In this document: piece after piece, positions 3,256-19,358 of the stretch
How positions within the stretch are numbered: position 1 is the stretch's first letter
Layout of the letters: each line of letters begins with the position of its first letter
Notes under the pieces: generated by a model
The model's input: the letters and a program-made list of their open reading frames with translations, nothing else
The model's database searches: none
What the model was told of the DNA's origin: nothing
Made by a program: the position numbers and the translations under genes
Source: Escherichia coli
GTDB taxonomy: Bacteria > Pseudomonadota > Gammaproteobacteria > Enterobacterales > Enterobacteriaceae
Strand: one strand, 5' to 3'
Assembly: GCF_003018115.1 (NCBI RefSeq)
Contig: NZ_CP027457.1
DNA: 64,000 bases

Positions 3256-3601
3256 TGCGTCTTTACCTTTTAGAAAGATGAGCCTGTTCGCACAGAAAAG
3301 CCGTCCCCGAGATGGTCGCCACCATATACGGCAATTCTCAGGCTCAGCTTTCTGAAAGACTCGGGATTGTTACGCGCTGCGATGCGCGGTTTACTGCAGA
3401 TGTAAAAAAGCCCCGCTACTGCGAGGCTAAATCCTGGTGTTTGTGATGACTGGCCCTTATCTCAACGCAGCCCCTTACCGCGCGCCAGATGCTCAATATC
3501 AAGCATCAGCAATGAGATGTTTAATCTGGATTCACTCCAGAAGTGATCACCACCCTGTCTACAGAGCCAGATGTGAAGGATGATGAGTAGAATTATCGCT
3601 A

Positions 3602-4039
3602 TCATCGAAGGCATTGCGTCCTGATGTATTCCTGCAGGTAGTTAACCTGCGCGGTTATCCTGTCGATTCCACTTCGGAGACGGTAATAATTGAGTTCAGC
3701 ATCTGCTGTAAGTCTTGGGCTTTCTCCATCGCCCATGCTGCTGGCTCCGGTCGTTGACTTTGCACAGGTGGCGGAGACTTGCAGGCGCTTACGACCAACA
3801 GAAACATCAGCACGGAGACTTTCGATAGTCGCGTTAGCATCAGCAAGCTCCTTTGTGTATCTGGCGTCGAGTTCTGCTACATCACGTTGACGCTTCTGCA
3901 TATCAGCGATGATGGATGTGGCTTTGTCGCGCTGGTCTTTATAGGCGATGGCGTTATCACGGTAATGATTAACAGCCCATGACAGGCAGACGATGATGCA
4001 GATAACCAGAGAGGAGATAATCGCGGTTACTCTGCTCAT
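3602..4039 (-). CDS. Rz: Rz spanin (inner-membrane subunit)
   Basis: 145-aa ORF beginning [30 protein letters not shown] (lambda Rz-like N-terminus), overlapping the endolysin stop. Confidence 0.8.
3655..3846 (-). CDS. Rz1: Rz1 spanin (outer-membrane lipoprotein), embedded in Rz in another frame
   Basis: ORF nested inside Rz with signal peptide, lipobox cysteine (LLVVSAC) and proline-rich segment ([13 protein letters not shown]); true start probably an internal Met. Confidence 0.65.
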
Positions 4040-11864: not shown

Positions 11865-11907
11865 CCCGCATTTCGGCGGGAATGAGGACCATGACTGTTA
11901 AAGAGCG
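11865..11907 (-). promoter_or_regulatory. nutR (boxA-like CGCTCTTTAACA plus boxB hairpin CCCGCCGAAATGCGGG)
   Basis: Downstream of cro on the minus strand; boxB is identical to the one at nutL. Confidence 0.6.
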
Positions 11908-12214: not shown

Positions 12215-12931
12215 ATGGAAAATAAAAAATCACTGACGACAGAACAGCTCGAAGACGCTAAGCGGCTTAAGGCTTTGTATGAGTCAAAAAAGAAAGAATT
12301 GGGAATAACCCAATACTCAATCGCTGATGAACTGGGTATCACCCAAGGAGCGGTAGGGCATTATCTTAATGGCAGAAACGCGCTAAACGTTGAGGTCGCA
12401 TCTGGTTTTGCACGTTTGTTGCAAGTCTCAATTGCTGATTTTAGCCAGTCAATTGCTGCCAAGGTTGCAGAACAGGCAGAAAGCCTTAAGAGCGATGCCA
12501 ACGTAAGGTATGCAGGGGAATACAGAGCAGGAAAGAGGTATCCGGTGTTAAGCAGTATCCAGGCTGGCTCGTGGTGTGAAGCATGCGAACCATACACCAT
12601 TAAAGACATAGATGTTTGGCTTGAGTCTGACGCGCATATTCAAGGTAATGCGTTCTGGCTTAAAGTGGAAGGTGATTCAATGACGGCACCGGTTGGGTTA
12701 AGCATTCCAGAGGGAACATTCGTTCTTTTCGATACCGGAAGGGAGGCGATCAACGGCAGCTTGGTCATAGCAAAACTTTCTGACTCTAACGAAGCAACAT
12801 TCAAGAAGCTGATAATCGACGGCGGAAATAAATACCTCAAGGGACTTAATCCTGCATGGCCTCTCGTGCCAATCAATGGAAACTGCAAGATTATAGGCGT
12901 TGCAATTGAGACAAAACTAAGGCTGGTTTGA
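12215..12931 (+). CDS. cI: CI-type prophage repressor (HTH plus LexA/S24-like C-terminal domain)
   Basis: 238-aa ORF; N-terminus MENKKSLTTEQLEDAKRLKALYESKKKELGITQYSIADELGITQGAVG parallels lambda CI; C-terminus AFWLKVEGDSMTAP...FKKLI is the autocleavage domain. Confidence 0.85.
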   Translation: MENKKSLTTEQLEDAKRLKALYESKKKELGITQYSIADELGITQGAVGHYLNGRNALNVEVASGFARLLQVSIADFSQSIAAKVAEQAESLKSDANVRYAGEYRAGKRYPVLSSIQAGSWCEACEPYTIKDIDVWLESDAHIQGNAFWLKVEGDSMTAPVGLSIPEGTFVLFDTGREAINGSLVIAKLSDSNEATFKKLIIDGGNKYLKGLNPAWPLVPINGNCKIIGVAIETKLRLV

Positions 12932-13317
12932 TCACGCAAGGGGCGATTATGGTTGGAACCGCTATAGCAAGCTTTTTTGGGATGTTGGCAATCTCGACAA
13001 TTTACGGCTTAGCGCATGCTTTTATTGCGAAATCTCTATCAGAAAAAATAAGCCAGGCTTGGGCGCATAGATCAGCTCGTTTCATGATTCTGGTGATCAT
13101 AGCAATACAAGGGATATCTGCATTTATCCTCTATGGATCAAGCTTATACCTATTGTATCAAGGCGCGACATTTACGCCTTACACCAGTGATTACGGAACT
13201 CTATACGATGGTAGTGAAGACATCACTGTGGCTTGGATCGTCTTTGGTTTATCTATGGCCGTGTCTGTTGTAGCAGACATCATTAAGGTAATTCTCGTCT
13301 TAACCTTCGCTGACTAA
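12928..13317 (+). CDS. Integral membrane protein (about 4 TM helices) co-transcribed with cI, at the rex position
   Basis: 129-aa hydrophobic ORF whose ATG overlaps the cI stop (ATGA); lower GC than surroundings. Confidence 0.6.
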   Translation: MITQGAIMVGTAIASFFGMLAISTIYGLAHAFIAKSLSEKISQAWAHRSARFMILVIIAIQGISAFILYGSSLYLLYQGATFTPYTSDYGTLYDGSEDITVAWIVFGLSMAVSVVADIIKVILVLTFAD

Positions 13318-13403
13318 CCTATAATCCCGGCAGCAATAGCTATCGGGATCCACTTCACATATCCCGCATAAAAAGCACTGAACAAGCAGACACCGAAAAA
13401 ATA

Positions 13404-13488
13404 AATATCCTTTGTATTCATTTGCTTATCATTATTTCACCAAAAATAAATACCTTGGGTATTTACACAATAAAATACCTACAGTATT
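13404..13488. promoter_or_regulatory. oL operators: AATAC-N5-GTATT palindromes at 13449-13463 and 13474-13488, plus a degenerate AATAT-N5-GTATT at 13404-13418 (pL region)
   Basis: AATACCTTGGGTATT, AATACCTACAGTATT and AATATCCTTTGTATT read directly; same half-sites as oR. Confidence 0.6.
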
Positions 13489-13536
13489 CTTTAGCCATCA
13501 GCAGGACGCTGGAAGCCAAACGGAACAGATTGGCAG

Positions 13537-13576
13537 GCTCTTTAACATTGATGGGATTGTCCCGCCGAAATGCGGG
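13537..13576 (+). promoter_or_regulatory. nutL (boxA-like GCTCTTTAACA plus boxB CCCGCCGAAATGCGGG)
   Basis: Same boxB hairpin as at nutR, in the pL leader upstream of N. Confidence 0.6.
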
Positions 13577-13684
13577 AACCAAAGAGTAGTTGGCTTTGGG
13601 GTGACGTGAAGTGCAGCTGCACGACGGCAACCGGAAGATAAGCACCCGGCGCGTCACCGCCAAAGTCAATCATCGGAGGTCAAC

Positions 13685-13990
13685 ATGACAGTAGTCATTA
13701 CATATCTGGCTGACGATAACGCCAGAAATCGCCGCAGAGCACGCAGACAGGCTCAACGTGAACAGGCAATGCAAGAGCAGCGACTGGCGCGAAAAATTGC
13801 GCTAAAGCTCTCTGGTTGCGTCAGGGCAGACAAAGCAGCATCACTCGGAAGCCTTCGCTGCCAGAAGGCAGAAGAAGTCGAGCGTAAACAGAACCGTATT
13901 TACTACCGCAAGCCACGCAGTGAAATGGGTGTGACATGCTCAGGCCGCCAGAAGCAACGCGGAAAATCAATTCCAGCTTATTACGATTGA
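13685..13990 (+). CDS. N: N-type antitermination protein (arginine-rich motif)
   Basis: 101-aa ORF with N-terminal ARM (NARNRRRARRQAQREQ); first gene after nutL; central region resembles phage-21-type N as recalled. Confidence 0.6.
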   Translation: MTVVITYLADDNARNRRRARRQAQREQAMQEQRLARKIALKLSGCVRADKAASLGSLRCQKAEEVERKQNRIYYRKPRSEMGVTCSGRQKQRGKSIPAYYD

Positions 13991-13995
13991 GGTTA

Positions 13996-14265
13996 ATGAT
14001 GAAATTCAAATTGAACGATGAAGTTAAATGGTCTAGCTCATCAAACGGTGTAACGAAGGTAAAAATCGGGTTTATCGTTGAGGTGATTCCTCCTGGTGTC
14101 AACGTAAAAAAATTCGAACTAGGCCGTCTGCTAGATGCACCTGGCCTTCCGAGGAAAGAAGAGAGCTATATAGTTTGTGTAGGTCCAAGACCAGGATCTC
14201 GTGCCAAGCCAAAATATTACTGGCCGCGAGTTAATAACCTGCGTCGCTTACACGATGACAAATAG
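13996..14265 (+). CDS. Hypothetical early protein (about 89 aa)
   Basis: ORF with RBS GAGG before ATGATG at 13996; frame open from 13936. Confidence 0.5.
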   Translation: MMKFKLNDEVKWSSSSNGVTKVKIGFIVEVIPPGVNVKKFELGRLLDAPGLPRKEESYIVCVGPRPGSRAKPKYYWPRVNNLRRLHDDK

Positions 14266-14320
14266 AAGTGAGTATCCTTGTTTTACTTTTTCGCAGCAAA
14301 CCACTTATTTGAGGTGAGAT

Positions 14321-14572
14321 ATGGAATTTCATGAAAGTGCGATTTGTGATTTTCGCGCTAACGCAAATTCAGTAAAACCACAGCCAATTGCAGTTCTTTT
14401 TAAAACAATGGGTGCGTGGGCTGTTTTATGCTTCGCCGCTGATGACACTGACGCAAGAATGGCAATAGGCCAAGAGATGGAGATGGACCCGACAAACGAT
14501 GAATTCATAATTTATGGCGCTCCATCTAATTACTTACTTGATACCTGCAACATTTACAACAAGGCTGCCTGA
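14321..14572 (+). CDS. Hypothetical early protein (83 aa)
   Basis: ORF in pL operon between N and cIII. Confidence 0.5.
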   Translation: MEFHESAICDFRANANSVKPQPIAVLFKTMGAWAVLCFAADDTDARMAIGQEMEMDPTNDEFIIYGAPSNYLLDTCNIYNKAA

Positions 14573-14611
14573 TGGTGGCCTTTATTTTTGGCATAAACAA
14601 CAGAGGCTAAC

Positions 14612-14908
14612 ATGGAATTTAAAGGTACTAAAGGTAAGTGGGAAATAATGATTGATGGCGATGAGATTAAAATCATCCAGGCAGACTCACTTGAAAATGG
14701 CGCAGGCTGGCGTTCGTATATTGCAATCTGTGAGGAAGTTCAATGCATTGAAGATGCCAATCTAATAGCGGCAGCGCCTGACCTTCTCGAAGCACTTCAG
14801 TTATTACTTAAGCAAACCAAAAATAGAACAACGACAACATATCCAGAATGGTATGGAGCTGTTAATAAAGGTATCGCAGCAATCAGAAAAGCTCTTGGGG
14901 ATAAGTAA
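14612..14908 (+). CDS. Hypothetical early protein (98 aa) with IAAAPDLLEAL motif
   Basis: ORF in pL operon; motif recurs in lambdoid Ea22-like proteins. Confidence 0.5.
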   Translation: MEFKGTKGKWEIMIDGDEIKIIQADSLENGAGWRSYIAICEEVQCIEDANLIAAAPDLLEALQLLLKQTKNRTTTTYPEWYGAVNKGIAAIRKALGDK

Positions 14909-15096
14909 TGAAAGTAAAAATAACTGCTTCTAATACCAGTTTTGTTAGTGTTGGTGATATTACAGAAGTAATAACAAACCATGATGGAACACAAGTTATG
15001 TGGTCTGATTTTTGTAAAAGATATGAGCGAGTCACTTGGTGTAAACTCGTATGGGGAGTCGAATACGAAGAATTACCTGAAATGCATGACGAATAA
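14908..15096 (+). CDS. Hypothetical early protein (62 aa)
   Basis: ORF whose ATG overlaps the upstream stop. Confidence 0.45.
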   Translation: MKVKITASNTSFVSVGDITEVITNHDGTQVMWSDFCKRYERVTWCKLVWGVEYEELPEMHDE

Positions 15097-15191
15097 GCAC
15101 TGTGTATTCATTCCAACGAGTGAATACACGGAGCAATGTTGCTCGTAACTAAACAGGAGCCGACTTGTTCTGATTATTGGAAATCTTCTTT

Positions 15192-15216
15192 GCCCTCCAG
15201 TGTGAGGGCTTTTTTA
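15192..15216 (+). terminator. Intrinsic terminator (tL-like) between the small-ORF cluster and cIII
   Basis: GCCCTC-CAGTGT-GAGGGC hairpin followed by TTTTTT. Confidence 0.6.
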
Positions 15217-15281
15217 TATGCATACCAATAACGCTTCACTCGAGGCGTTTTCGTTATGCAATCAAACAGAAGGAGCATCCT

Positions 15282-15452
15282 ATGCAACAGTTCGCTATTG
15301 CAGGGGCGGCATCGGTTCGCCCTTTCAACCCGATTTTATCGGTACAGCATTCACGAAAAAACATTCTAACCGGAGCAGACTTTAAACAACCAAGAATGAA
15401 AAGTTTGCTCGAAAAGCTTTGGGATATTTTGAAACAACAAGGCCGCCCATGA
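15282..15452 (+). CDS. cIII: CIII-like protein (FtsH inhibitor)
   Basis: MQQFAIAGAASV...SLLEKLWDILKQQGRP parallels lambda CIII (MQYAIAGWP...LLERITRKL...); start is an internal ATG of the listed ORF. Confidence 0.65.
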   Translation: MQQFAIAGAASVRPFNPILSVQHSRKNILTGADFKQPRMKSLLEKLWDILKQQGRP

Positions 15453-15533
15453 GTTTTACAGATAGCTGGTCAGACGAAGAATTCATTCGTCAGATGAACA
15501 AAATGCTCAATCAGCACAAAGAACAGGAGAAAG

Positions 15534-15845
15534 ATGATGATTCTGACTCTGAATGATAAGCGTGAAATATCGCAAATAATCGCAAGTTTTACTGATGAAG
15601 ATTACGAACGAATCAACAGTGAAGTTGATCGCCTCTGCAAACGTTGCGACCCAATAAGCGAAATGCTTCGATCATATAAACCAGATGAACACACTAAGGA
15701 CGCTATCGACTGGCTGGAAGATGATGACTGTAACTATCAGGAAAAAGCCGCTGAATGGTTCTGGGATGCAATAACCGAAAGAGTTAAGGCTGAATATGCC
15801 TTCGCAATATTCAAACGCAGACATATTTATGGAGAAGCTGCATGA
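15534..15845 (+). CDS. Hypothetical protein (103 aa) at the gam/kil position
   Basis: Acidic ORF immediately upstream of and overlapping recT. Confidence 0.5.
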   Translation: MMILTLNDKREISQIIASFTDEDYERINSEVDRLCKRCDPISEMLRSYKPDEHTKDAIDWLEDDDCNYQEKAAEWFWDAITERVKAEYAFAIFKRRHIYGEAA

Positions 15846-18707: not shown

Positions 18708-18909
18708 CAGAGAGCTTGTTGATGCCGCCATTAAGCTTGCTGGTGATTTTTATTCAATGATGGGGTACACGCATCGCCCAGGCTTCAAATATTGGGAGTC
18801 TCCGCACCCGCAAGAGCAACTGGTATTTCAAATGGCCTGCCGTGCTTTTGAGGTTATTCGCGGTTCTGATGTGATGGACGCCGTTGCCGACTTGGAGGAT
18901 GAAGAGTGA
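18685..18909 (+). CDS. Hypothetical protein (about 74 aa)
   Basis: GTG at 18685 preceded by AAAGGAGG; overlaps the Lar 3' end in another frame. Confidence 0.45.
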   Translation: MSGKRMTNRELVDAAIKLAGDFYSMMGYTHRPGFKYWESPHPQEQLVFQMACRAFEVIRGSDVMDAVADLEDEE

Positions 18910-19358
18910 GCAAGATTGACTATCAGGCACTGCGTGAAAAGGCAGAGAAAGCAACGTGTGGGGTGTGGTCGCTCGAATATGGAGAGGAGAGATTTGATGC
19001 TGATGATGCGCTAATTCATCGTGAAGTTGTTGGATATCTTCCCATTTGCAGAATTGAAGGAGCGCATCCAGAAAGCGGTTTCGATGAAGATTTCCAAATG
19101 GAACAGCAGGCCAATGCTGAATTCATCGCCGCAGCCAATCCAGCTACCGTGCTGGCGCTGCTGGATGAGCTGGAAGCCAAAGACAAGCGGATTGCTGACA
19201 TGGAGGCGCGGGAGGTTGTACTGCCGCGTGCGCACGATGTTCACCCATTAGGGCCGCAGGCGGCGAAAATTTTTTGTGAGTTTCACCGGAGTATCGTGAA
19301 CAGATGCGCCGATGAGATTCGCAAGGTTGGCATCAAAGTCAGCATCAAGGGGAATTAG
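18906..19358 (+). CDS. Ea22-like early protein
   Basis: 150-aa ORF with AAANPATVLALLDELEAKDKRIADME motif typical of Ea22-family proteins. Confidence 0.45.
   Translation: MSKIDYQALREKAEKATCGVWSLEYGEERFDADDALIHREVVGYLPICRIEGAHPESGFDEDFQMEQQANAEFIAAANPATVLALLDELEAKDKRIADMEAREVVLPRAHDVHPLGPQAAKIFCEFHRSIVNRCADEIRKVGIKVSIKGN

Follow-up and report, generated by a model that had tools for sequence, protein, structure and literature searches.

Four exchangeable accessory cassettes in the N-cIII interval of a lambdoid early region in Escherichia coli

Results

Analysis of a 64,000-nucleotide stretch of Escherichia coli DNA (contig NZ_CP027457.1, assembly GCF_003018115.1; hereafter the window) revealed that the interval between its N and cIII genes is the lambdoid N-cIII accessory slot, and that the four small ORFs within it are accessory cassettes, exchanged independently of one another, in the leftward early (pL) operon of a lambdoid prophage; they keep their position and are mosaic in composition. 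The fuller reading, namely that these exchangeable cassettes encode small binding proteins made early in lytic growth, has in our judgement about an even chance of being correct; the proposed expression timing would follow from the layout, and the binding or counter-defence role of the four products is a reasoned guess. Swap-prone accessory slots of this kind are known, and the locus is an unremarkable instance; PHROGs already includes all four proteins, and homologues are publicly available as hypothetical proteins.

Organization of the interval

The operon context was defined by the identification of cI, of the N antiterminator gene (13685-13990, + strand; phrog_271, anti-termination protein N-like, E = 7.4e-36) and of cIII (15282-15452, + strand; phrog_550, E = 1e-22). 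A pL-like promoter (13462-13490, + strand; TTTACA-17-TATTCT), recognized by its consensus match alone, lies where expected, with the cI-side genes to one side and N to the other, and a nutL-like site (13537-13577, + strand) combines boxA GCTCTTTAACA (13537-13547) with a boxB-like hairpin of a 6-bp stem and a 6-nt loop (13560-13577). The exact boxA is also mirrored after cro, in the nutR position (11896-11906, - strand), and by the known lambda layout the site at 13537-13577 would be nutL. The four ORFs, of 89, 83, 98 and 62 amino acids, are all on the + strand between N and a tL-like intrinsic terminator ahead of cIII (15192-15215, + strand; GCCCTC-6 nt-GAGGGC at 15192-15209, then TTTTTT), an arrangement on which the coordinates and the PHROG matches agree with the original prediction. 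This terminator is conserved among VT2-Sakai-type phages. The G+C content of the four-ORF region is 38-43%, as compared with 54% in N. Promoter-like matches within the interval are no commoner than in shuffled sequence, and an Rfam scan of positions 13300-15600 gave no match.

All four ORFs match PHROG families of unknown function from end to end (E = 5e-31 to 1e-61), and comparison with diverged homologues (45-75% identical) gave pN far below pS in every case, with dN/dS values of 0.14 for ORF1, 0.12 for ORF2, 0.13-0.56 for ORF3 and 0.25 for ORF4; on these grounds, all four are real genes. Each is preceded, at a distance of 4-8 nt, by a ribosome-binding site of the GAGG/GGGG type, and the ORF lengths and start sites are kept across genera. 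The reading frames, whose conservation in related prophages had been named as a test, proved to be conserved. Antisense and overlapping ORFs of the interval matched no family. It is scarcely credible that the four are decaying or non-functional ORFs hitch-hiking in a recombination-prone region: the rarity of each ORF (1-7% of genomes), the frequent skipping of ORF1 by PGAP and the lack of a listed phenotype for ORF2 in one large screen would suit such a view, but the pN/pS contrast, the conserved lengths and starts, the intact ribosome-binding sites and the confident structural model of ORF3 all speak against it. The deduced proteins have theoretical pI values of 10.0, 4.2, 4.9 and 4.8 for ORF1 to ORF4, respectively, and negative GRAVY values throughout. 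Scans against Pfam (in a copy apparently lacking PF27050), NCBIfam and PADLOC gave no match for any of them, sequence searches of the PDB with each of the four returned nothing meaningful, and no enzyme-like match was found in these four resources.

The view of the interval as a lambdoid accessory slot is borne out by its contents in related phages, which comprise ral, sieB, P22 gene 17, Nmad5, pentapeptide-repeat genes and HNH genes. Among 5426 complete E. coli genomes, ORF1, ORF2, ORF3 and ORF4 were present in 49, 402 (about 7%), 159 and 93, respectively, and only two genomes hold at least 80% of a query composed of N, the four ORFs and the tL terminator. A conserved terminator hairpin divides the array: ORF1 and ORF2 are grouped with N on its upstream side, and ORF3-ORF4 form an insert on its downstream side. 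In particular, ORF3-ORF4 are missing from Sakai-type phages, the gap falling precisely between ...AACAGA and GCACTGTG, and the junctions share GAATAA. The right-hand edge of the insert is a long near-perfect hairpin without a U-run (15097-15134, + strand; dG -21.7 kcal/mol, z-score -5.85), whose counterpart in Sakai-type phages is found a few bases 3' of the ORF2 terminator hairpin. Finally, one related locus (L001) carries ORF1 to ORF3, with a different gene of 52 amino acids replacing ORF4.

ORF1 and ORF2

ORF1 (13996-14265, + strand; phrog_11941, E = 4.7e-46) encodes a basic protein of 89 amino acid residues, or of 88 when read from the second ATG (13999), where its homologues start. These homologues fall into 31 clusters, all from Enterobacterales and all labelled hypothetical, in which the C-terminal motif PGSRAKPKYYWPR is invariant; three other prophages carry them in the same N-cIII slot, and a PF17420 gene neighbours one of the homologues. 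ORF1 is a conserved gene often overlooked by automatic annotation. The AF2 model of ORF1, obtained together with ORF2 and ORF4 in a single job with arbitrarily concatenated alignment rows, is beta-rich and of moderate confidence (pLDDT 51-74). A Foldseek search of this three-ORF model against the PDB, which reports matches without telling which ORF or domain was matched, yielded SH3, Tudor and KOW barrels at non-significant values (E ≥ 0.05). A barrel of the SH3/Tudor/KOW kind is therefore only suggested for ORF1, given the moderate model confidence, and the protein is a candidate nucleic-acid or ribonucleoprotein binder.

ORF2 (14321-14572, + strand; phrog_2471, E = 1.4e-61) encodes an acidic protein of 83 residues with a net charge of about -7, for which AF2 prediction failed (pLDDT 19-41). 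The protein is 100% identical in at least 49 phage records, among them H0090 (Sap20) of VT2-Sakai, gp34 of mEp234 and hypothetical proteins of HK106 and HK633. In these phages the gene directly follows N and precedes the tL region, whereas in the window it is separated from N by ORF1 and from the tL region by ORF3-ORF4. VT2-Sakai/mEp234-type phages also share a terminator hairpin at the ORF2 stop codon. In the window this tL1-like hairpin (14561-14591, + strand) has a 9-bp stem (dG -13.9 kcal/mol, with a modest z-score of -2.2), bears the TGA codon of ORF2 in its loop and is followed by UUUAUUUUU. Among 80 ORF2 loci, nearly all retain it with hardly a change, irrespective of the downstream sequence, and its counterpart is annotated in mEp234 as a rho-independent terminator. 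The G+C-rich stem-loop, the U-run and the conservation are those of a putative intrinsic terminator; the hairpin is a second terminator-like element, inside the interval, that the original prediction had not included. A single weak promoter-like match was noted within ORF2 (14484-14511).

Members of the ORF2 and ORF3 families were present in a published screen of 200 accessory genes, performed in MG1655 with lambda and in about 20 wild hosts with conditional lethality and phage sensitisation as read-outs (Silas et al., bioRxiv 10.1101/2023.04.06.535777). The library contained a copy identical to ORF2 (UDP0060) and a protein of the Y8K6 family (UDP0123), and was without ORF1, ORF3 itself and ORF4. 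Both UDP0060 and UDP0123 are absent from the list of genes with a phenotype, which makes a counter-defence role less likely, at any rate towards the defence systems that those hosts carry. In the restriction arm, which used MG1655 (EcoKI) and unmodified lambda, only ArdA, Ral and Ocr are named as hits in the screen log (bioRxiv 10.1101/2023.04.06.535777), and EcoKI, a type I restriction system, is an improbable target of ORF2. None of the four ORFs is related to orf184, the trigger gene that the same study places in the ral accessory region.

These data bear on classical anti-restriction, in which at least one of the ORFs would act in the manner of Ral or Ocr and relieve restriction of type I or type III. 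The slot is occupied by ral in lambda, P22, BTP1 and many relatives, and Ral of lambda and P22 (PF11058) has a similar size and the same early-operon position; moreover, ORF2, ORF3 and ORF4 are acidic, and ORF1 and ORF2 would be very early products. We nevertheless consider this explanation quite improbable. Ral has no sequence similarity to the four ORFs, none of which matched Ral or known anti-restriction families in Pfam, PHROG or PADLOC, the charge of ORF2 is modest for a DNA mimic, and the EcoKI arm named neither of the two library proteins. Anti-restriction and exclusion functions had originally been proposed from position alone, and no ORF resembles Ral, SieB or gp17.

ORF3 and ORF4

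ORF3 (14612-14908, + strand; phrog_1273, E = 5e-31) encodes a protein of 98 residues which sequence and profile comparisons identify as a homologue of the catalogued Y8K6/XkdD family (PF27050, Phage_P22_Y8K6; named 'XkdD/Y8K6 family phage-associated protein' by NCBI). It displays the architecture of this family, namely a length of 80-110 residues, an N-terminal TxGxW, a central ANAxLIAAAPxLLEAL helix and a C-terminal AIxKALG, and shares its length, this succession of motifs and the N/ral-cIII position with the family of P22 orf78 (Y8K6) and PBSX XkdD. Comparison by hhalign of the ORF3 alignment with a 99-aa protein of a related locus (L092), whose PF27050 label was taken from precomputed gene tables, gave a probability of 99.3% (E = 3.3e-20, 90 columns, 40% identity), and a phmmer search of 1.84 billion proteins retrieved the P22-orf78-like P0026 (E = 1.9e-7); P22 orf78 is a member of the ORF3 family. 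Identity to a labelled Salmonella Y8K6 member is only about 40%, and the beta-meander sequence of ORF3 is unrelated to that of P22 orf78. Since the Pfam copy used apparently lacks PF27050, the absence of a Pfam match for ORF3 and for 121 aligned relatives is misleading; likewise, NCBIfam gave no match for ORF3 or even for P22 orf78 itself, which indicates that the copy has no Y8K6 model. No record was returned when the exact ORF3 sequence was looked up; near-identical copies in RefSeq bear the name 'hypothetical protein', and a literature search for XkdD/Y8K6 found nothing relevant. The statement that none of the four ORFs is recognizable is only partly correct: it goes too far for ORF3, as a Y8K6/XkdD homologue, and for ORF2, as identical to VT2-Sakai and mEp234 proteins.

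In ORF3, TxGxW near the N-terminus is followed by a variable beta meander that leads to the ANLIAAAPDLLEAL helix, and a second variable segment then connects to the AIxKALG helix. The conservation profile shows two hypervariable segments between conserved frame elements. The near-invariant columns (T6, G8, W10, A49, L51, I52, A55, P56, L58, L59, L62, I91, K93 and A94) are mostly hydrophobic or structural. The homologues of ORF3 number 133 representatives, three of which are spurious repeat proteins. The AF2 model of ORF3 is confident (pLDDT 91.7), and the chain ends after a three-helix unit. Loci of the family are preceded by cI, cII and N and followed by kil, cIII and recombination genes, with members in the same slot in mEp043, BTP1 and ST104; relatives are also found in Klebsiella, Cronobacter and Proteus phages of about 145 kb, which from their taxonomy we take to be virulent. 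P22 gene 17 was considered as an ORF3 homologue because of its shared position: this gene (PF17420), which permits growth on Fels-2 lysogens, encodes about 100 amino acids and lies directly before the terminator preceding c3, like ORF3/ORF4. The candidate was rejected, the hhalign probability against P22 gp17 being 0.2%, and none of the four ORFs matched PF17420.

The motif LIAAAPDLLEAL (ORF3 residues 51-62, 14762-14797) had been described as recurrent in lambdoid early proteins, and it does mark a domain shared with Ead/Ea22 proteins. Within the window, the sole other site resembling it is in an Ead/Ea22-like ORF (18906-19358; PF13935, E = 6.6e-22), and a literature search with the motif string returned no papers. 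Ead/Ea22 proteins, including this ORF and lambda Ea22, share with ORF3 an N-terminal domain comprising G-x-W, a beta region and an ANAxFIAAxNP...LLxxLE helix. The ORF3 profile aligned significantly by hhalign only when an alignment of Ead N-domains served as target (88.4%, E = 2.8e-6, 61 columns), the match to the single Ead sequence of the window being weak (34%, 13 columns). Foldseek against AFDB50 gave many 'Ead/Ea22-like family protein' matches to ORF3 (probability 1.0, E = 3e-9 to 0.1), and the PF13935 profile matched neither ORF3 nor its 121 relatives. The comparisons support homology to the Ead/Ea22 N-terminus at the domain level only, with ORF3 as a stand-alone form of that domain. Both are early, non-essential and mosaic; however, ORF3 lies in the N-cIII slot and Ead/Ea22 in the exo-xis region, and ORF3 is devoid of the central coiled coil and variable C-terminal domain that characterize the Ea22 plan (PMC10834534).

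This relationship raises the alternative that ORF3, perhaps with the coupled ORF4, modulates the lysis-lysogeny decision in a pro-lysogenic direction like Ea22, a role that we regard as unlikely. The homology with the Ead/Ea22 N-terminal domain in hhalign and Foldseek and the location of ORF3/ORF4 just upstream of cIII favour it, as does the fact that the sole characterized relatives of ORF3 are the Ea22 proteins, which favour lysogeny and act on the lysis-lysogeny decision, not on defence (PMC7093339, PMC10834534). Conversely, the Ea22 coiled coil and C-terminal domain are missing from ORF3, and the family also occurs in the large phages, for which, if virulent as presumed, there is no lysogeny decision. 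To our knowledge, lambda Ea22 itself is without the beta-meander part, which also counts against the comparison. The C-terminal domain of Ea22 alone fails to reproduce its effect, the active region being unmapped (PMC10834534).

ORF4 (14908-15096, + strand) encodes an acidic, beta-rich domain of 62 residues, matching phrog_10407 (E = 1.5e-45) and the C-terminal part of phrog_16117. Its start overlaps the end of ORF3 by 1 nt (TAATG), which suggests that the two are translationally coupled; in Salmonella prophages, a 73%-identical ORF4 copy stands behind a Y8K6 gene with the same 1-nt overlap. The AF2 model (pLDDT 78-90) has four to five strands and one helix. The ORF4 domain is also found in RB49-like Straboviridae: RB49ORF076c (119 aa) and its relatives in Krischvirus (T4-like; phrog_16117) are 55-59% identical to ORF4 over their C-terminal 54 residues, but are longer (119-144 aa) by an extra N-terminal part, and they sit in the small-early-gene cluster of a virulent phage without an adjacent Y8K6 gene.

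Homologues in virulent phages argue against a further alternative, that the four are moron-like exclusion or defence genes expressed from the prophage in the manner of sieB or rexAB and protecting the lysogen. The presence of sieB in this region in lambda and P22, the low G+C content of the four ORFs, typical of acquired cargo, and the promoter-like match inside ORF2 would fit such genes. We judge the explanation to have little probability, as all four ORFs are on the pL strand and the promoter signal is not above chance, PADLOC found no match, and the library proteins are absent from the superinfection-exclusion hits listed in the screen. None of the four ORFs is predicted to have the membrane character or the own promoter of a SieB-type gene: GRAVY is negative for all, and TMHMM gave 0 for the ORF2-identical protein (bioRxiv 10.1101/2023.04.06.535777).

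Discussion

In the reading that we prefer, the four ORFs would be silent in the lysogen and made only after infection or induction; silence is expected because pL/nutL precedes them on the strand that carries N, and no separate promoter was detected for them. ORF1 and ORF2, ahead of the first terminator-like hairpin, would be made together with N as immediate-early products, and ORF3 and ORF4, beyond the hairpin at 14561-14591, would need N-mediated read-through. All four products are small soluble proteins without conserved catalytic-type residues, and each would bind stoichiometrically a host or competitor macromolecule early in lytic growth, in the service of host takeover or counter-defence. 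Their proposed character as binding proteins draws on the absence of enzyme-like matches, on the mostly hydrophobic or structural near-invariant residues and the two hypervariable segments of ORF3, and on the pI values. A role in lytic growth rather than in the lysogen is based on the ORF4 domain of RB49-like phages and the ORF3 relatives of large phages. As a long shot, Y8K6/XkdD and the Ead/Ea22 N-domain might represent a very widespread phage binding scaffold of a 'frame-and-variable-loop' type, whose hypervariable beta meander and second variable segment are exchanged through recombination at the conserved LIAAAPxLLEAL-coding stretch, so that it is redirected to different immunity or regulatory proteins of the host, with the immediate-early N-ORF1-ORF2 unit supplying new inhibitors of defences that act before the N-dependent stage.

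For the field at large these results change little, as the N-cIII interval was already recognized as a lambdoid accessory region. Y8K6/XkdD and the Ead/Ea22 N-terminus emerge as one domain, with a confident predicted fold and no solved relative, and this shared domain links two sets of uncharacterized lambdoid early proteins. ORF2 is carried by Shiga-toxin phages and is apparently co-transcribed with N ahead of the first terminator. Should any of the four ORFs prove to be a counter-defence factor, it would be relevant to the host range of Stx phages.

Organization of the N-cIII interval

In layout, the plus strand of the window resembles a lambdoid prophage's leftward early operon. A LexA-family cI repressor gene (12215-12931) is followed here by a gene for a hydrophobic, membrane-like protein of 129 aa (12928-13317; phrog_6534, unknown function). 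Next come a match to a pL-like promoter (13462-13490), an exact boxA (13537-13547; GCTCTTTAACA) where nutL would be expected, a boxB-like hairpin 3' of it (13560-13577) and N (13685-13990). Four small ORFs follow N. They are separated from cIII (15282-15452) by a G+C stem and its U-run (15192-15209), and cIII is itself followed by a kil-like ORF and the gene of a RecT recombinase. A second exact boxA, GCTCTTTAACA, was found mirrored after cro, at the expected nutR position (11896-11906, minus strand). The membrane-like gene, whose first codon overlaps the stop codon of cI (ATGA), occupies the rexAB position of lambda, so in the lysogen it may share a transcript with the repressor gene; a very hydrophobic 35-aa ORF (MNTKDIYFFGVCLFSAFYAGYVKWIPIAIAAGIIG; 13314-13421, minus strand) lies between it and pL. 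At the kil position, a 45-aa ORF (15419-15556, plus strand) overlaps the 3' end of cIII and matches only phrog_17766 and phrog_2123, while a 103-aa protein of phrog_3486 (unknown function) is encoded downstream of cIII (15534-15845, plus strand).

The four plus-strand ORFs, namely ORF1 (13996-14265; 89 aa), ORF2 (14321-14572; 83 aa), ORF3 (14612-14908; 98 aa) and ORF4 (14908-15096; 62 aa), have exactly the sizes and positions given in the original prediction. All are preceded by a Shine-Dalgarno-like sequence and each matches, over its full length, one PHROG family of unknown function (E 5e-31 to 1e-61); alternative-frame and opposite-strand ORFs of the interval gave no match. The dN/dS values, obtained by comparing each ORF with diverged homologues of other prophages, were 0.14, 0.12 and 0.25 for ORF1, ORF2 and ORF4, respectively, and 0.13-0.56 for ORF3, with the upper values coming from recombinant pairs; in all four, non-synonymous differences are far rarer than synonymous ones. 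This pattern of substitution indicates that all four are real protein-coding genes.

Among 5426 complete E. coli genomes, ORF1, ORF2, ORF3 and ORF4 are carried by 49, 402, 159 and 93, respectively, and the entire segment from N through the four ORFs to the tL terminator is at least 80% present in only two. Sakai-type phages lack ORF3-ORF4, which in the window form an insert of about 490 bp, from ...AACAGA (14604) to GCACTGTG (15097), with GAATAA common to its junctions. In phage mEp234, N is directly followed by ORF2, whereas ORF1 is inserted between them in the window; the related locus of E. coli ZF8-1 has ORF1-3, but its ORF4 is replaced by a different 52-aa gene. These three differences show cassette behaviour. 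The G+C content of the interval is 38-43%, versus 54% for N. The right-hand limit of the ORF3-ORF4 insert is marked by a long near-perfect hairpin without a U-run (15097-15134, plus strand; dG -21.7 kcal/mol, z about -5.9). Sakai-type Stx phages have kept this hairpin, which may serve in RNA processing or mark a boundary of recombination.

ORF3 and its relation to the Y8K6/XkdD and Ead/Ea22 families

A HMMER scan of 1.84 billion representative proteins with ORF3 yielded 133 matches, three of them spurious repeat proteins and most of the others proteins of 85-115 aa. The 122-sequence alignment revealed a conserved frame (T6, G8, W10; A49-L62, ANLIAAAPDLLEAL; I91, K93, A94) interrupted by two hypervariable segments, residues 11-45 and 64-85, and the confident AlphaFold2 model (pLDDT 91.7) has a beta meander of five strands and, after it, three helices. 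The Pfam library scan gave no match for ORF3 or any relative; in precomputed gene tables, the PF27050 (Phage_P22_Y8K6) label is attached to a Salmonella protein of 99 aa that is encoded in the corresponding slot. Based on the alignment of this protein with the ORF3 profile (99.3% probability, E 3e-20) and on the identical architecture of P22 orf78, the Y8K6 protein encoded between ral and gene 17, ORF3 is a homologue of the catalogued, uncharacterised Y8K6/XkdD family. Near-identical copies in RefSeq still carry the name 'hypothetical protein'.

The original prediction that ORF3 contains a motif recurring in lambdoid early proteins proved correct by Foldseek, PF13935 and profile evidence, and the relation to Ead/Ea22 goes beyond a common motif to the level of the domain. 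Foldseek comparison of the ORF3 model with AFDB50 returned many 'Ead/Ea22-like family protein' entries with probability 1.0, and an alignment built from the N-terminal parts of Ead proteins matched the ORF3 profile over 61 columns (88% probability, E 2.8e-6). ORF3 is therefore the stand-alone form of the Ead/Ea22 N-terminal domain, without the coiled coil and C-terminal domain of that family. The window also encodes an Ead/Ea22-like PF13935 member (18906-19358, plus strand; E 6.6e-22). ORF3 and the N-terminal domain of this protein are distant paralogues, which gives the prophage two copies of the domain. Ea22 is reported to favour lysogeny (PMC7093339, PMC10834534), and an Ea22-like lysis-lysogeny role for ORF3 is a serious rival to the binding role considered below.

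One ORF3 homologue (P0003) is 86% identical to ORF3 in its N-terminal part and 23% in its C-terminal part, with the reverse pattern in two others, P0020 and the P22-orf78-like P0026. E. coli genomes with partial matches to the gene contain only nt 1-174 or only nt 178-297 (the 3' 120 nt). Modules are thus exchanged inside genes of this family, with the conserved motif as the site of exchange. The motif-coding stretch 14762-14797 (residues 51-62) coincides with the break points.

ORF1, ORF2 and ORF4

A basic protein (pI 10.0), ORF1 has an invariant stretch, PGSRAKPKYYWPR, in its C-terminal part; its model is beta-rich, at moderate confidence. Its family is small and confined to Enterobacterales, and tblastn against the phage-genome collection gave no match. 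Homologues share the N-cIII slot in three other prophages, with Nmad5, gp17-family (PF17420), Y8K6 and HNH genes among their neighbours. The gene is intact in E. coli ZF8-1 (3397-3663 of the L001 locus; 98.9% identical), yet unannotated by PGAP, and of six RefSeq genomes sampled, four likewise have nothing annotated where ORF1 matches; ORF1 thus looks like a conserved gene missed by automatic annotation.

ORF2 is acidic (pI 4.2), without a reliable predicted fold (pLDDT 19-41), and 100% identical to hypothetical proteins of VT2-Sakai, other Stx phages, mEp234, HK106 and HK633, within a narrow family restricted to Enterobacteriaceae (at least 56% identity). Its TGA stop is part of the loop of a hairpin (9-bp stem) that precedes UUUAUUUUU; this hairpin is annotated in mEp234 as a rho-independent terminator and kept in nearly all of 80 loci irrespective of downstream content. 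The expression check originally proposed for these ORFs has, for ORF2, been published: the library of Silas et al., whose 200 accessory genes were expressed both in MG1655 and in wild strains of the ECOR set, includes an entry identical to ORF2 (UDP0060) and a Y8K6-family protein (UDP0123), both absent from the genes with a reported phenotype, and the MG1655/lambda screen log has only ardA, ral and ocr as hits (bioRxiv 10.1101/2023.04.06.535777, Supplementary File 3). ORF2 is thus no listed hit, at least for EcoKI and in the hosts of that study. A classical anti-restriction role, for which sequence gives no support in any of the ORFs, is disfavoured for ORF2 by this screen.

ORF4, also acidic, has a confident model (pLDDT 78-90) of four to five strands and one helix, and its domain shares 55-59% identity with the C-terminal end of RB49ORF076c (119 aa) and its relatives in T4-like phages. 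It overlaps ORF3 by one base, and in Salmonella prophages a 73%-identical copy overlaps a different Y8K6 gene, located just before it, in the same way. The ORF3-ORF4 pairing is not specific: an overlap of 1 or 4 bases with the following gene is seen in 27 of 64 distinct ORF3-family genes, and the downstream partners come from many unrelated families. Foldseek comparison of the combined ORF1/ORF2/ORF4 model with the PDB gave only non-significant KOW, Tudor, chromo-barrel and SH3-barrel matches with no assignment to an ORF, so that an SH3-like barrel is no more than suggested for ORF1 or ORF4.

Possible role of the locus

The evidence supports the view that the pL operon carries here an array of early accessory genes that are open to exchange. 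By their placement, ORF1 and ORF2 would be made with N, ahead of the first terminator, and antitermination would be needed for ORF3 and ORF4. Exclusion by products expressed from the prophage is unlikely, since promoter signals do not rise above chance for any ORF, membrane segments and matches to defence systems are lacking in all four, and relatives are present in virulent phages. Enzyme-like conservation was found in none of the four, and as a reasoned guess, they would most likely act by stoichiometrically binding macromolecules of the host or of a competitor at an early stage of lytic growth. The original observation is confirmed, and its interpretation is supported in part only. The locus brings together, in an accessory slot that is already known, catalogued but uncharacterised genes in a new combination.
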